From: Parcubacteria group bacterium GW2011_GWA2_47_26
GTDB taxonomy: Bacteria; Patescibacteriota; Patescibacteriia; GWA2-47-26
DNA length: 52,776 nt
NCBI GenBank assembly: GCA_001001705.1
Contig: LCOG01000008.1
Location: forward strand, 1 to 52,776
Reading direction: 5' to 3'
Of this stretch, positions 5,312 through 49,000 are shown piece after piece. The notes beneath the pieces were generated by a model that was not told the DNA's origin, did not search any database, and saw only the letters and a list, made by a program, of their open reading frames with translations. A program made the position numbers and the translations under genes. How positions within the stretch are numbered: position 1 is the first letter of the stretch; every line of letters starts with the position of its first letter.

Positions 5312-6061
5312 TTAAGTGGCGGCATGTCCGCCATTTACGATTTTATCATGCAAGCGCAGGGCGGTATGCTTAACGGCTTGCAATTTTTTGGTAAAAAATG
5401 GCCTAAACAAGTGCACAATATACGAAAATGCCATGGATGTCAAGATAAAAATAGTCTTAACCGCGGGCAGACTTGCTAGGATAACAAAAGACATCAAAGG
5501 AAACGCGTAGCGAAACAAGCTATCGCTTAAAGTCAGCGTATCGCGGCGATGCCGCTGGGAACGCCAAATTTGCCAGTACAAAAGAACGCCCACCAATCCC
5601 GCTACATATATATTTTTTTGTGCAATATCAAATCCTAGAAAACGAGTATTGATTACATCTGGCCGCGCTATGCTCGGATATAGCGCATTTAATTTGCCGG
5701 TCATTCCACCAACAAAAACTTGGTACAAAAGCACTAAAGCCAAGAGTTGTATGCCTAACAGGATCGCCGAAGCCCAAGGCTGAATCCGATTTGCGCGCAA
5801 GACTTCTCTAATATGATCTTTGCGGGCAATCGGATCATCTTTAAATTCATTTTGGATAGCAACCAAATCTTCCTGAATTTTTTCAAATTTGAAGCTGTTG
5901 CGTTCCGCTATGATTGAAAATGGGATAAGCACAACGCGCAAAGCCACAGTCATATAAGCAACCGCCAAACCCAGATTTTCAAAGGCTACGTTATTATAAA
6001 GCCAAATCAAAAAATTCAAAAGGGGCGTGAACAAATAATCATGCCAAAATATACTTAACAT
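5312..6061 (-). CDS. yidC: membrane protein insertase, short YidC/Oxa1 family
   Basis: GLAVAYMTVALRVVLIPFS, then an amphipathic helix (KFEKIQEDLVAIQNEFKDDP), then LANRIQPW-type TM helices. Length is 249 aa. Confidence 0.7.
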   Translation of the reverse strand: MLSIFWHDYLFTPLLNFLIWLYNNVAFENLGLAVAYMTVALRVVLIPFSIIAERNSFKFEKIQEDLVAIQNEFKDDPIARKDHIREVLRANRIQPWASAILLGIQLLALVLLYQVFVGGMTGKLNALYPSIARPDVINTRFLGFDIAQKNIYVAGLVGVLLYWQIWRSQRHRRDTLTLSDSLFRYAFPLMSFVILASLPAVKTIFILTSMAFSYIVHLFRPFFTKKLQAVKHTALRLHDKIVNGGHAAT

Positions 6062-6168
6062 AGATTTTGCATGGATTTAGTATAGCACAAAACGCAATCC
6101 AGCGCATCCACAGCCCTATATAAGTTGACACACTGTTATTTTTGCATTAAACTAAAAGCCTGCTCTTT

Positions 6169-6791
6169 TTGGCGGAGGAACGGAGGAATAGAATGTATGC
6201 CATGGCCCATCCGGTCCAGTTTGTAGTACTAACAGCCGAAGAGGAAAGAACGCTAGCCCGTAAATGGCTAGATCACGGAGATGAGAAAGCGCACACACGC
6301 TTGATGGGACTGTTGCCGAATATCCATTTTGGCCATTTCTTCCCAAATACGGCTGCGACTCGTTGAAAATCACTCGAAATAGCTCTGCTATTCCTGCGTA
6401 TTTTCAACTTCGTCTCGCTCGTATTTTGAAAGAACTATCTCAAAAGCATATTCGGCAGGAGTCCCTTGATGCAAGCCTGCATTGGCCTAACATGGAAAAT
6501 CGCCTGGGGCTTCAGGAATTACGGGTTCCCTGTGGAAGATTTGGCGCAGGAAGGCCAGCTTGGCGCAATCAAAGATCTTGCAAAATACGATCCCGCAAGA
6601 GCACGGTTGTACACCTACGCGGCATGGTGGATACGGGCGTACATCCTGACCTATGTTCTCAAAAACTGCAAGATCGTAGGAAGTTGTCGCGCGAACGTGT
6701 GCGACAGCTTGAAGCACGCGCCAAAGCCAAACTCCGCGCGCATATCGCGGCCACTTACGGTAAAGACGCTATAGCAACCCTACTAGGGTAA
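6169..6791 (+). pseudogene. sigma-70 family (RpoH-like) sigma factor remnant, split by a MITE and carrying an internal deletion and frameshift
   Basis: Region 1.2/2.1 (LTAEEERTLARKWLDHGDEKAHTRLM) ends at 6306. Region 2 (QACIGLTWKIAWGFRNYGFPVEDLAQEGQLGAIKDLAKYDP...YAAWWIRAYILTYVLKN) resumes at 6472 in the same frame. Region 4.2 (LSRERVRQLEARAKAKLR) follows directly in another frame, so regions 3 to 4.1 are missing. Confidence 0.8.
6307..6465. mobile_element. 159-bp MITE-like element (GGGACTGTTGCCGAATA family), copy 1, inside the sigma gene
   Basis: Terminal inverted repeats GGGACTGTTGCCGAATAT and ATATTCGGCAGGAGTCCC. Flanked by the direct repeat TTGATG (6301-6306 and 6466-6471). Removing the element plus one repeat restores the sigma reading frame. 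Confidence 0.85.
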
Positions 6792-6813
6792 GGCGATTCG
6801 CGAGGAGATATTG

Positions 6814-6845
6814 ATCGGTGTCGGGGGAACACCGATTTTGTTTTT
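6814..6845 (+). terminator. Rho-independent terminator after the sigma remnant
   Basis: ATCGGTGT-cggggga-ACACCGAT followed by TTTGTTTTT. Confidence 0.7.
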
Positions 6846-6980
6846 ATGGAATACTTTTGGTGGAAAAGGCAAGCATAAGAAAGTGTGCAATAACACACGG
6901 CCGTGAACTACTGCTCACGGATGCAAACAGCCCTTTTTAATAATTCAATTCGGTAACGGAGAAAAATAGGAATGTTGGAC

Positions 6981-7005
6981 GAACCCAAGGCTTAGCCTTG
7001 GGTTC
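6981..7005. repeat. CCAAGGCTTAGCCTTGG-type palindrome
   Basis: GAACCCAAGGCTTAGCCTTGGGTTC. The same core recurs at 11505-11544 (two copies) and 37850-37865. Confidence 0.8.
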
Positions 7006-7031: not shown

Positions 7032-7475
7032 TCAGATGGTCGTTGGCCAAATAAGTTTGCCATAATGATCATATATTGGGAGTCGGAGATTGGGATTGTT
7101 CTGCGTCGCCTCCAACATTTTCTGCAATACTTTGCGTTGCAAATCTTCTGATCCATAAGGCACGTGTATTCCATGGATAAGTCTAAAATAAAGTTCTCGT
7201 GATTTTTCTGCTTCAGATAATCCAACGGTTGTTCCTCTAATACTACTTTTACCTATACGCCCCAACCATTCATTCGTCCCCCGATTGTAGAAGCCAATAA
7301 TATCATCGCTTATCCCTTGAACGCTAAGCGATGGGTCATTTATTATGGAATCACTTACTTGAAAAATAATGCCAATTGGCTCTTTATCCTGATATGTTGA
7401 AAATTGTTGTAAAATAAAAATCGTTGCCTCGTGGCGTTCTTCAGGAGTATTAAGATTTTGCATCATTTTTTGCAT
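7032..7475 (-). CDS. hypothetical protein (AT-rich orphan)
   Basis: 147-aa ORF with no recognisable motif. The frame stays open a further 39 codons upstream without a canonical start. Confidence 0.4.
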   Translation of the reverse strand: MQKMMQNLNTPEERHEATIFILQQFSTYQDKEPIGIIFQVSDSIINDPSLSVQGISDDIIGFYNRGTNEWLGRIGKSSIRGTTVGLSEAEKSRELYFRLIHGIHVPYGSEDLQRKVLQKMLEATQNNPNLRLPIYDHYGKLIWPTTI

Positions 7476-8048: not shown

Positions 8049-8195
8049 GGGACTGTTGCCGAATACCATTTCTACTGCAAGTTAAGAATTTTGGCTGCGA
8101 CTTTGTGAAACATTCTCAACATATACGCCGTATATGCTTCAAATGTTTCACTTCGTCTCGCTCAAAATTCTTACCTTTCGTAGAACCATGTGTCC
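8049..8195. mobile_element. MITE-like element copy 2 with a degenerate right terminus
   Basis: The first 132 nt (8049-8180) differ from copy 6 (48839-48970) at one position. Confidence 0.8.
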
Positions 8196-27400: not shown

Positions 27401-30400
27401 TCTAACATGGTCATTCATCTCTAAAATACCTGTTGCCATGTCAAAAAGAGTCACACCGGCAAAGGCAAGGGTATCTCCCGTCTGGGTAATCGTGGCATCG
27501 CTGCTATCCCAGTTGATGACTGCGCCTTCGGCCAGAAACAAATCGCTGAACGCCGTTCCTGACACGCCAAGCGCGAGGCCGTCATCGGCATTGGGTTGAA
27601 GATTCGTCGCATTGAGAACAAGCTCATTAGTCCCGCCGATGCCCACCTCCAAAGACGTGGTAGCATTGATATCTGTGTCCCACCCAGAACCGACTGAAAT
27701 AGCGGTTTCCGTTCCTGAGCCGGCGGAAGTAAGGTTGGCGATCGCAATGCCTGTAAGAGTGCCCGCGGCAGGCCCTGAAGTTGTTGGCGCAATTATATTA
27801 ATTCCGGTTGATGTTCCGTCGGTTGTAATCGCGGATGAAGCGGGGAACACGATACGAATTGCATCCGCGGTTACCGTGCCCGTGGTTTGAGTGATGGCTG
27901 GAATTGTAATTGTCTCACCTCGCCAATTGATAGTTCCCGCGGCGGTGCTTTGAATTAAACCGGCGCTACTTGTGATTGTAATGCCACTCAATACCTCGGT
28001 GCCGGTTCCAGTGCGCGTAGCGCCATCAGTAGTAAGCGCGATATTGATCATATTCCGACCATTCGCGCCGGTTAAATTAGTGGCCAAATCAATATTTAGG
28101 CCCGTGAGCGCGCCAGCACCCTGCGTATTAGCTGACTCATACGAAACGTCAATAAGCGTGCCTGTGTCATTCATGCTTTCAAAATCCATCATATTTGCCG
28201 TAGTGATACTTGTGCCCGTAATAACAATAGCGGCGCCATCTCCACTGGGAACAAACGACGTCCGTCCATCGCTAAACATTGTAAACACATCCGAGTCTGT
28301 AGCATCCGCGTTTTGACTCGCACGTATGAACCCGGCCGAGGCATCTTCTGAAATCATATGCAGGAAATAGCCATTTGTAGAATTAGTGTCGTTGTATTCA
28401 AGACGAAGCAAAGCTGAATCAAATTGTGACCATGTTCCAGTTTTTTGAATTACCATGGCCGCTTGTCCAGCGGTGTCAAAGGTATTGGCATCACGAATAC
28501 CAATCCCAAAAGCTGATGGTGTGACAGCCTCTGTAAGACCGGCGCCGAACGCTCCGCCGACATGCAAGCCCTCATCCCACCCGGTTCCAATTGAAATAGC
28601 TGTTTCTGTGCCCGATCCAGCGGAGGTCAGGTTTCCGATTTGCATGCCATAAAGCGTGCCGGCCGCCGGACCAGAGGTTGTGGGTGAGACAATGTTTATC
28701 CCGGACATGGTACCACCGGTCACAATGGCGCCGGAGGCGGGAATGGTTACTTTCAGACCATCAGAGGTAATGGTGCCGGCGGTTCCGGTAATGGCAGCCA
28801 GTGTAATGTTGGTTCCAATTGAACTTACTGTACTACCGGCAAAATTTGCAGTTGCCACAGGAGCAGTAATATTCAGACCGCGCCAGTTGATAGTTCCAGC
28901 GGCGGTGTCTTGGGTAAGCGCGCCGGAGGCGGAATTATTGTAGGCAATGTAGGTTGTGGTATTGGCCGCGGATTGAGTGAGCGCGTTCATAACCACATTC
29001 GTGCCAGTGATATCGCGGTCAGTGGCGCCGGTAAGGTTGGTGTCAAAGTCAAACTGCAAACCAATGATGTCTCCGGCTCCTTGGGTGGTTGCGCCCCCAA
29101 AATTGGCGTTTATGAGCGTGCCTAAAGTCCACTCGGTTGCGAGTTCAAAATCAAGAAAGGTTCCCGTAGTATTGGGATCAATCGCAAGTGCACCGGAAGT
29201 TTCGGCAATAAAGGTGCCAGAATTAATGTTGATCGCGTCGTCCCAACCGGAGGCAATAGCTAAGCCTGTGGCCGTAATGGTGCCGGTGGTTTCGGATTGA
29301 GTCAGGGTGCCGATGTTTAAGGCATTTAAGGTAAGGGTGCCGGCCGCGCTAATAGTACCGGTAAAGGCATCCACGTCAATCACATTGAAGGTATCCGAGG
29401 CATTGACTGAAATTGAGGGGGTGATATCAATGACATTGCCCGAGGCATTAGAGCCGGTGAAAGTGAGCTGGAGCGCGTCAACGCCGTCAGTCGCTGAAGT
29501 GTCCCCGGAACCAATAGTCACGATGTCGGCGGTAGGGGTGGCATCCCCGTCAAAGTTAATGGTTTGTCCATCAATGATTTCCACATTAAAGTCACCCCCG
29601 GCAACGGCCAGAGAGTTCGCGGCATGGGTGAGGGTGACATCGCCATTATCAAAGTTGATGACTCCACCCGAGGCCAGGAAAAGATCTGACCACATTAAGG
29701 AGGTGGTGCCTAACGCATTAGAGTCGGTGGTGGCGGGTGAGAAAGCCGAGCTGGTCAGGGTTAGTTCATTGGTACCACCAATGCCGATCTCAAGTGAGGT
29801 GGTGGCATTGATATCCGTATCATATCCTGTACCAATAGAAATACCAGTGGTAGCAGAGTTGGTGGTGGTGGTGTTGGGTAAAGATAACCCAATAAACGTG
29901 TCAGCATCAGTGGATTCTGTCCAGTTGATTACCAAGCCATTGACGGCGTCTACTGCCGCATCGGCCGTAGAGATGGCGGAAAGATCCAGCACATCAATAG
30001 CGTTGACTGAAGTACCGGAAAACGCTACGACATCCCCAGCATTGGCACCAGTTTTAGTCACGTTGGCCGTATCTCCAGCATCGAGCGTCACATTAAAATC
30101 TCCGCCTGAAACATCAAGATCGCCGTTTGAGATAAGGATGTCGCCATCGGTAAGGACTAAAGAATCTACTCCGTCTCCACCGCCGTTTAAGGTGACTTGG
30201 CTGTCCGCGTCTGTATCTATAATCACGTCACCTGTGCCTCCAGGAGTAATAGTCAGAGATTCGTTTGTGCCTGTTGTAATAGAACCGTTGCCAAAGGTTG
30301 TTGTGGCTCCGGCGATGAATGAACCGTCCGTATAGACATTGCCTTCAATGCCTGCAATGCCAGCCACAAAAAGATCGTCTCCATCAAGTGTGAATCCAGC

Positions 30401-34824: not shown

Positions 34825-34986
34825 GGGGACTGTTGCCGAATACGCTTTCGTAACGAAAGGTAAGAATTTTGAGCGAGACGAAGCAAAAGGTATGAAGCAT
34901 ATACGCAGTATATGTTGAATAGCTTTTGCAAAGTCGCAGCCAAAATTCTTACCTTGCAGTAGAAATGGTGTTTGGCAACAGTCCCC
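34825..34986. mobile_element. MITE-like element copy 3, full length, inverted relative to copies 2 and 6
   Basis: Termini GGGGACTGTTGCCGAATAC and GTGTTTGGCAACAGTCCCC. TTAG is present on both flanks. Confidence 0.85.
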
Positions 34987-35384: not shown

Positions 35385-35544
35385 GGGGACTGTTGCCGAA
35401 TGCCATTTCTACTGCAATCGCGTATATGCGGCTACGGCTTTGCAGAAATTTTTCGACAGATACTGCGTATATGCCTCAAAATTTCTGCTTCGCCTCGCTC
35501 GCATCTTCGCGATTTCGCTACGAAAGCGCATTCGGTACCCGTGC
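35385..35544. mobile_element. MITE-like element copy 4, overlapping the 3' end of the nucleotidyltransferase gene
   Basis: GGGGACTGTTGCCGAATGCCATTTCTACTGCAA...CGCTACGAAAGCGCATTCGGTACCC. Confidence 0.8.
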
Positions 35545-35947
35545 AAATGCGTCGCCGAATTTTTGTCGCTGATACGCCAGGATATTCGTCAATCCGCTTA
35601 ACCGGCAATCCTGCTGCTTTAAAAATTTTAATAACTAGATCATTTCCAGACCACGCCATATCAAACTTGCCTGCTTGTTTTTTTACCAGCTCTACCCATT
35701 CTGCGTCAGTCGCAGTATCCGGAAGTTCAATAATTTTATACTTTTCAGCGCCAATTCCTTTCATGACTTTATTCACCATTTCTTTGCGCTCCGCAAGCAT
35801 AAACGGATTTTTGTAAGTTCCTGACTCTTGCGGAGAACCAATCGCTACAATCAAAAGATTCGCGCGTCTAACGCAGTCGCGCATAGCCAACATATGGCCT
35901 TTATGCAAAGGTTGAAATCTGCCAATAAATAACCCGATCTCCTGCAT
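35432..35947 (-). CDS. nicotinamide-nucleotide adenylyltransferase-like cytidylyltransferase (NadM type) with a repeat-encoded C-terminus
   Basis: GLFIGRFQPLHKGH (HxGH motif) and SATKIRRRI (ISxTxIR motif). The start is set at MQEIG (35947). The last ~35 codons and the stop lie inside MITE copy 4. Confidence 0.7.
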   Translation of the reverse strand: MQEIGLFIGRFQPLHKGHMLAMRDCVRRANLLIVAIGSPQESGTYKNPFMLAERKEMVNKVMKGIGAEKYKIIELPDTATDAEWVELVKKQAGKFDMAWSGNDLVIKIFKAAGLPVKRIDEYPGVSATKIRRRICTGTECAFVAKSRRCERGEAEILRHIRSICRKISAKP

Positions 35948-48838: not shown

Positions 48839-49000
48839 GGGACTGTTGCCGAATACCATTTCTACTGCAAGGTAAGAATTTTGGCTGCGACTTTGTGAAA
48901 CATTCTCAACATATACGCCGTATATGCTTCAAATGTTTCACTTCGTCTCGCTCAAAATTCTTACCTTTCGCGCACATGGCCGCATTTTTGGCACTGTTCC
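48839..49000. mobile_element. MITE-like element copy 6
   Basis: GGGACTGTTGCCGAATACC...TTTTTGGCACTGTTCC. 131 of the first 132 positions are identical to copy 2. Confidence 0.85.

Follow-up and report, generated by a model that had tools for sequence, protein, structure and literature searches.

Introduction

Bacterial MITEs that disrupt genes have been described, the best comparable cases being Chunjie of Geobacter uraniireducens and the Correia elements of Neisseria (PMC10969869). The element treated here is likewise small, non-coding, and present in many copies, with terminal inverted repeats and target-site duplications, and it shares with Chunjie and the Correia elements a mostly intergenic distribution, the occasional disruption of a coding sequence, and a long hairpin (PMC10969869). 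It differs from them in its host, which belongs to the Patescibacteria (CPR), in its IS5/IS1182-like partner, and in a duplication of 5 bp. A second group of small palindromic sequences, the Rickettsia palindromic elements (RPEs), is known as in-frame insertions that are translated (PMC10969869). RPEs are likewise palindromes of about 150–160 bp that add a whole number of codons, whereas in the case presented here the element introduces stops into the frame of a host gene that is dead, and the other full copies lie outside recognisable genes. In the literature, no published description of MITEs in Patescibacteria (CPR) was found.

The window, that is, the whole stretch of 52,776 nucleotides that was analysed, corresponds to contig C8 of an 842-kb genome assembled in 26 contigs and about 80% complete; the kinship of its mobile elements points to the Patescibacteria. 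Here we describe a sigma-factor relic in this window that carries a MITE, together with the family and the partner insertion sequence to which the MITE can be tied.

A sigma-factor relic on the plus strand

Nearly all genes of the window are encoded on the minus strand, and the sigma unit has yidC (5312-6061, minus strand; Pfam 60KD_IMP) on one side and two orphan open frames on the other. A phage origin of these orphan frames was considered and dropped, with no PHROG or Pfam hits. The initial annotation regarded the sigma relic as the only plus-strand gene, and this holds: the other plus-strand frames of at least 120 aa lie inside longer minus-strand frames, with the exception of 35400-35816, a frame next to a MITE copy that shares part of its length with a longer minus-strand frame. 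The parts of the sigma locus are as follows.

6125..6153, plus strand: promoter-like site, TTGACA, a 17-nt spacer and TAAACT, with 10 of 12 consensus matches, recognised by consensus match alone
6182..6195, plus strand: Shine-Dalgarno sequence GGAGG (6182-6186), a 6-nt spacer and ATG (6193-6195), read from the sequence
6193..6791, plus strand: sigma-factor relic, an RpoH-like sigma-70 gene, pseudogene
6193..6305, plus strand: N-terminal sigma fragment, from region 1.2 to the start of region 2.1, whose 3′ end is the left TTGAT copy
6301..6305, no strand: left target-site duplication TTGAT, 5 bp, from sequence and family comparison
6306..6465, plus strand: MITE of 160 bp with terminal inverted repeats at 6306-6322 and 6449-6465, folding as a long hairpin
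6466..6470, no strand: right target-site duplication TTGAT, 5 bp, from sequence and family comparison
6466..6678, plus strand: sigma regions 2.1-2.4 in the original frame, ...QACIGLTWKIAW...YAAWWIRAYI...KNCKIV, with a Sigma70_r2 match of 50 bits
6679..6686, plus strand: deletion junction, with loss of RpoH profile positions 119-249 and a change of frame
6687..6791, plus strand: remnant of region 4.2 in frame +2, SRERVRQLEARAKAKLR..., ending at the stop TAA (6789-6791)
6813..6847, plus strand: terminator-like hairpin followed by a T run, just 3′ of the original stop codon

Removal of 165 bp (55 codons) in silico joins ...EKAHTRLM to QACIGLTWKIAW... in one frame. The joined protein is recognised by Pfam Sigma70_r2 at 4e-13 (49–50 bits against a cut-off of 24), and it matches the NCBIfam RpoH profile at 5e-27 along positions 20-118 of 289 in a single gap-free stretch, so that the N-terminal and region 2 fragments become contiguous on this profile once the insert is taken out. 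The junction is also free of gaps in an alignment with six sigma-32-like homologues. Thus the two proposals of the initial annotation concerning the protein, that the relic is an RpoH-like sigma-70 gene and that excision rebuilds a normal in-frame junction, are both borne out, the joint being that between regions 1.2 and 2.1. The RpoH profile alignment begins at residue 9–12 of the frame opened by the ATG at 6193, and the N-terminal fragment gives a weak Sigma70_r1_2 match.

As for the type of sigma factor, RpoH models are the top-ranked NCBIfam profiles for both sigma remnants, and the nearest proteins found carry a sigma-32 annotation, with an identity of at most 48%. Owing to the truncation, the whole-protein RpoH score of 94.7 bits lies below the equivalog cut-off of 315; the relic keeps about half of the gene, and what has been deleted includes the diagnostic RpoH-box segment. 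Taken as a whole, we consider 6193-6791 to be a dead RpoH-like (sigma-32-type) sigma gene with two independent lesions, a MITE insertion and an internal deletion, and we give this reading a probability of roughly 0.88.

Boundaries of the element and its target-site duplication

The inserted element was initially described as 159 bp long (6307-6465) and flanked by a 6-bp duplication, TTGATG. The hexamer is indeed present at 6301-6306 and again at 6466-6471, but the G at 6306 is the first base of the terminal repeat GGGACTGTTGCCGAATA, whose inverted partner, with 2 mismatches, ends at 6465. These terminal repeats are 17 nt long, and the 2 mismatches of the sigma-gene copy are absent from other copies, in which the repeats are perfect. 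The GGGACTGTTGCCGAATA motif occurs 7 times in the window, compared to 0.11 occurrences expected by chance. Correia elements duplicate TA, whereas the family comparison here points to five bases: all 14 perfect duplications, found at 8 MITE copies (this genome and two related genera) and 6 full-length insertion sequences (other Patescibacteria), consist of exactly 5 matching bases adjoining GGG...CCC, and the sixth base matches in 7 of the 14. Since G6306 belongs to the terminal repeat and 14 of 14 duplications are five bases long, the element is taken as 160 bp (6306-6465) with a 5-bp duplication, TTGAT, and the sixth base of the earlier reading becomes the first G of the repeat. Either way of drawing the boundaries, 159 plus 6 or 160 plus 5, removes 165 bp.

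That MITE and duplication together amount to 165 bp, a multiple of three, and that one reading frame of the MITE is open, could suggest a tolerated insert of the kind known from the Rickettsia palindromic elements, translated in-frame as 55 added codons within a working sigma factor. However, in the sigma frame the MITE carries TGA stops at 6364-6366 and 6427-6429. A recoding of TGA that would make the insert translatable was considered and rejected: TGA ends 146 of the 577 long open frames in the genome, about a quarter, and the genetic code is the standard one, so both in-frame triplets are real stops. Moreover, regions 3 and 4.1 are gone and region 4.2 is out of frame, which leaves no possibility of a full sigma factor. 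The in-frame stops and the deletion refute such a working translated product, to which we attach practically no credence, and the reading as a dead gene is kept.

The sigma-gene copy is 97.5% identical to C1:2243-2402 and 97.5–99% identical to its sister copies. Against Rfam, the MITE gave no match at an E-value of 1 or below, and its size of 160 bp leaves it without coding capacity recognisable by Pfam.

Independent contigs and the search for an empty site

Being a multi-copy repeat in an assembly that breaks at related repeats, the MITE could in principle have been mis-threaded into the contig, or the deletion could be a mis-join in a metagenome-assembled genome. The public runs that hold the sigma region are groundwater and soil metagenomes, and their contigs speak against both. 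At the left junction, the unique flank runs into the first 6–30 bases of the MITE in Logan X1 record 1, X3 record 9, and X10 record 1, and at the right junction Logan X1 record 7 and X6 record 24 join its last 30 bases to the unique right flank; the latter two also cross the deletion junction with zero differences. These contigs stem from different studies and samples, covering several groundwater and soil metagenome runs, at a low coverage of 3–5x, and they break inside the repeat, none spanning the whole MITE singly. Because independent metagenome contigs cover the left, right, and deletion junctions, an error of a single assembly is unlikely, and we regard an artefact as highly improbable and the two lesions as real.

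No empty-site allele was found in eight metagenome runs or in sequence collections, that is, no joints across the site. As neither an empty site nor a close intact orthologue was found, the MITE insertion is one that we infer from the continuity of the protein profile and from the duplication rather than from a before-and-after comparison.

The element family

Genome-wide, 62 terminal-repeat hits are present in the 842 kb, and two other genera of the same bacterial family have 10 and 13 terminal-repeat hits, including copies of 160 bp. Besides the copy in the sigma gene, the window holds the following.

8049..8185, plus strand: one-ended MITE copy with an intact left terminal repeat, stopping near element position 137
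34826..34985, minus strand: full 160-bp MITE copy from a different subfamily, flanked by ATTAG and CTTAG
35386..35541, plus strand: nearly full MITE copy with a degenerate right end
48839..48975, plus strand: one-ended MITE copy ending at the element position where the 8049 copy also stops

In a set of 21 paired copies, the 5-bp flanks match perfectly in 8 and at four or more of the five positions in 15, compared to 0% and 3.6%, respectively, in offset controls. An examination of the flanks of other copies had been proposed initially; duplications were found there (8 of 21 perfect), and their length proved to be 5 bp instead of 6. The other 13 full-length MITE copies in the genome lie outside recognisable genes. 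Further intragenic copies were looked for and none was retained: in-silico excision produced open frames across the site at a few copies, and their translations look like random sequence.

The hairpin is shared by the family. In 17 copies from three genera it comprises 47 base pairs, of which 95.6% are paired, while controls in which the partner was shifted by 1–3 columns reach 34–51%. Among its cells, 132 are changed on both sides of a pair, and only 9 are G-U. Within the GGCTGCGAC / GTCTCGCTC segment of the hairpin, a small number of mismatches and bulges are kept in every subfamily. In about 19 one-ended half copies a single terminal repeat survives, and the copy breaks off just beyond the apex of the hairpin.

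Covariation confined to Watson-Crick pairs points to a constraint at the level of DNA rather than of RNA. On this ground it might be proposed that the whole 160-bp hairpin is maintained as a DNA-level structure and that the MITE is more than a passive hitch-hiker, which we hold to be a speculative and rather unlikely reading; pairing could also arise by a non-selective route, for example if the arms are copied from each other.

The partner insertion sequence

A candidate source of the transposase is found within this genome. Contig C13 opens partway through an insertion sequence, with the 99-aa C-terminus of a transposase (C13:1-297) followed by a terminal repeat of the MITE type, and ends of this partner are found on six contig termini, three as left ends and three as right ends. 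The flank ATCAT is found both at the end of C9 and at the start of C3, so that a full copy with a 5-bp duplication bridges the two contigs. A stretch at C5:76349-78618 was tried as a full-length copy and rejected, as it consists of two unrelated terminal-repeat remnants flanking ordinary genes.

Full-length relatives with 55–70% identity to the transposase fragment occur in many Patescibacteria lineages, including Uhrbacteria, Doudnabacteria, Moraniibacteria, Kaiserbacteria, Falkowbacteria, and Saccharibacteria. They measure 1.2–1.3 kb and have one open frame of about 335 aa, GGGNCTGTYGCC ends, and terminal repeats of 16–18 bp, and six of them show perfect 5-bp duplications. The transposase carries the domains DUF772 (63.9 bits) and DDE_Tnp_1 (28.3 bits), both above their cut-offs. 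Against NCBIfam it scores 123.3 bits with IS5_4 (cut-off 140) and 134.7 bits with IS1182 (cut-off 270). Since both scores fall below the cut-offs, the partner is called a 1.25-kb IS5/IS1182-like insertion sequence only, an approximate assignment by profile similarity that places it in neither family.

IS5/InsH of E. coli is about 1.2 kb long, with one DDE transposase of about 330 aa, 16-bp terminal repeats, and a 4-bp duplication. The partner resembles the IS5 group in its size (1.2–1.3 kb), its single frame of about 335 aa with DUF772 and DDE_Tnp_1, and its repeats of 16–18 bp, and it differs in duplicating 5 bp instead of 4 and in remaining below the curated IS5_4 and IS1182 thresholds.

The identification of the insert as a MITE, made at the outset, is supported by its short length, its terminal inverted repeats, the 5-bp duplications, the many copies, and the partner insertion sequence. 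The further proposal that the family moves with duplication of its target is supported by the genome-wide flank statistics and by a cognate DDE insertion sequence that shares its ends and its duplication length with the MITEs.

A mechanism for the first lesion can be outlined as follows. A 160-bp non-autonomous transposon would have inserted at the boundary of regions 1.2 and 2.1, presumably through the DDE transposase of the 1.25-kb IS5/IS1182-like insertion sequence, whose termini (GGGNCTGTYGCC...) are the same. The duplication of TTGAT would have arisen as the target was cut in a staggered fashion and the gaps were repaired. With the MITE, two TGA stops have entered the sigma frame. Staggered cleavage followed by gap repair is the known behaviour of DDE transposases, and it is from this behaviour that we infer the chemistry at the sigma site, as opposed to having observed it.

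The internal deletion

The second lesion lies downstream. The original frame stops matching after ...LKNCKIV, which ends at 6678, and a piece in frame +2, RKLSRERVRQLEARAKAKLR..., matches RpoH profile positions 250-281. Against Sigma70_r4 the region 4.2 remnant scores 20.1 bits, below the cut-off of 24.1, and covers the last 20 profile positions alone. The deletion comprises about 400 bp, or some 130–140 codons, so that the RpoH-box segment, region 3, and region 4.1 are absent and the remaining part of region 4.2 is out of frame with region 2. This agrees with the initial description of regions 3 and 4.1 as lost and of region 4.2 as lying in another frame, with RpoH positions 119-249 missing.

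More than 210 bp separate the deletion junction from the right end of the MITE, which is intact, and the junction itself is without a terminal-repeat remnant. A deletion mediated by the MITE is unlikely for the same two reasons, and the deletion is treated as an independent lesion.

Order of the lesions and fate of the remnant

Beyond the two lesions, the relic is substituted at 9 of 39 near-invariant positions, meaning positions conserved in 13 or more of 14 homologues; among intact homologues the number of such differences ranges from 0–7 with a median of 1, and two of them reach 7. Conserved core-binding residues of the sigma remnant are among those substituted.

It had been stated initially that the MITE inactivated the gene and that decay came later. 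This order is not supported, as the data do not date the deletion relative to the insertion. We lean, by a narrow margin and on weak clues, toward a MITE that landed in a gene already non-functional or dispensable, as suggested by a young copy (97.5–99% identity to its sisters and a perfect duplication), by the position of the other 13 full copies outside recognisable genes, which suggests purging from useful genes, and by the 9 of 39 substitutions. The last clue to the order is weak because two intact homologues also differ at 7 conserved positions, and none of the three is decisive. In the converse sequence of events, the insertion struck a sigma gene that still worked and inactivated it, with deletion and frameshift following under relaxed selection. 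The insertion, with its two in-frame stops, would alone suffice to kill the gene, and a promoter-like site, a ribosome-binding site, a start, and a terminator that are still recognisable imply that the death of the gene is not very old; we judge this sequence of events plausible, if somewhat short of an even chance, against the clues just listed.

It may also be asked whether the insertion gave the remnant a new use. The right terminal repeat, a variant, provides a Shine-Dalgarno-like AGGAG at 6457-6461, suitably spaced at 7 nt before an in-frame ATG at 6469 in the duplicated target, and the frame opened there, which keeps a Sigma70_r2 domain above threshold, could encode a putative 101-aa protein of region 2 only that might compete for RNA polymerase. 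The repeat variant with AGGAG is, however, also found in the copies at C1:2243 and C18:20926 and is not site-specific, the conserved core-binding residues are changed, and a conserved homologue of the mini-protein was not found in searches of proteins and metagenome contigs. We therefore regard such an exaptation as very improbable, and a dead gene remains the preferred reading of the remnant.

Origin of the gene

The intact sigma factors of the genome are RpoD and two of the ECF type, three being found in an assembly that is 80% complete. An intact paralogue or orthologue of the relic, a search for which had been proposed initially as a check, did not emerge from searches of relatives, proteins, or metagenome contigs. 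The genomes of 40 relatives gave RpoD cross-hits only, at 34–42% identity; a search of 5.8 billion proteins with a length-padded query gave at most 48% identity, and a scan of metagenome contigs at most 47%. With regard to RpoH itself, none of the 41 genomes of the class has a match above the cut-off, every hit being a cross-match of RpoD. Comparison with the two closest relatives shows that yidC only is shared, so the neighbourhood is uninformative. Since no relative carries a true RpoH, the sigma gene is probably a lineage-specific acquisition by horizontal transfer that is now being lost.

Significance

Disruption of a gene by a MITE is textbook biology, and the sigma relic is a case of ordinary gene decay that documents a transposon insertion well; its main value is documentary. 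The insertion is precise to the codon and checked against protein profiles, and it fixes the duplication of this Patescibacteria MITE and insertion-sequence group at 5 bp. The case at the sigma site also ties the MITEs to an IS5/IS1182-like transposase in the same genome.

The hairpin covariation and the half copies bear on the behaviour of palindromic mobile DNA in these genomes. If the hairpin is indeed maintained as a DNA-level structure, the formation of a hairpin or cruciform may belong to the mechanism of transposition, and the MITE hairpin may drive palindrome-stimulated deletions that contribute to gene loss and genome reduction in Patescibacteria. As for the regulator, a CPR genome of 0.84 Mb once had a sigma-32-type gene that 0 of 40 relatives possess and that is being erased, which shows that regulators are both gained and lost even when a genome is ultra-small.

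Terminal repeats and hairpin of the element in the sigma gene

The MITE copy that splits the RpoH-like sigma relic carries a hybrid pair of terminal repeats, in which the left repeat (6306-6322) has GT at positions 7-8 and the right repeat (6449-6465) is of the CC/GG variant, and both ends have been confirmed by contigs of independent runs. The variant right end gives rise to an AGGAG motif (6457-6461), and an ATG at 6469 lies 7 nt downstream. In an alignment of 17 MITE copies from three genera (G000, G004, and G005), a 47-pair hairpin spans the entire element, corresponding to 6306-6465 in the window. Covariation along this hairpin is strong and nearly all Watson-Crick, with 132 cells in which both sides have changed and only 9 G-U cells, and the mismatches in its GGCTGCGAC / GTCTCGCTC segment are kept across subfamilies.

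Surroundings of the sigma relic

The sigma relic is followed by two orphan open frames, neither with any Pfam or PHROG match, and beyond these lies a truncated MITE copy. The relic and the two frames make up a 2-kb stretch that the nearest relatives do not share.

Orphan open frames downstream of the sigma relic
7032-7475, minus strand, 147 aa
7613-7978, minus strand, 121 aa

Short intergenic stretches 3′ of the relic (6880-6914 and 6980-7000) were found again on unrelated contigs of several metagenome runs, differing at 1-2 positions, and probably represent a further small repeat family. Elsewhere in the host's class, genome G032 carries a tandem array of three sigma-70-family genes, each encoding about 295 aa (contig C2, 105327-108081), for which the best models are RpoH-type, yet with scores below the cut-off.

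Partner insertion sequence and assembly breaks

The partner IS5/IS1182-like insertion sequence is present in three or more full-length copies that interrupt the assembly, and its ends lie at contig termini of the host genome.

Ends of the partner insertion sequence
Left end: C5 end, C9 end, C24 start
Right end: C3 start, C10 start, C13 start

Since the same ATCAT flank is found at the C9 end and at the C3 start, these two contigs are probably linked through a single copy of the insertion sequence.

Nested and one-ended copies

At C9:29097-29319, a partial MITE copy starting at 29191, of the same subfamily as that in the sigma gene, is nested within a copy of a different subfamily, whose CTTAA duplication is still perfect. 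Genome-wide, matches to the MITE terminal repeat number 34 in forward versus 18 in reverse orientation, and about 19 copies are one-ended, each having a single intact terminal repeat.

One-ended MITE copies
In the window: 8049-8185; 48839-48975
Examples outside the window: C1:19010, C3:43627, C5:99680, C11:17545, C19:971, C2:52300, C3:1807, C22:3608

These one-ended copies occur in both orientations, with variable break points shortly beyond the hairpin apex (element positions ~95-137), and may have arisen by palindrome-stimulated loss of one arm.
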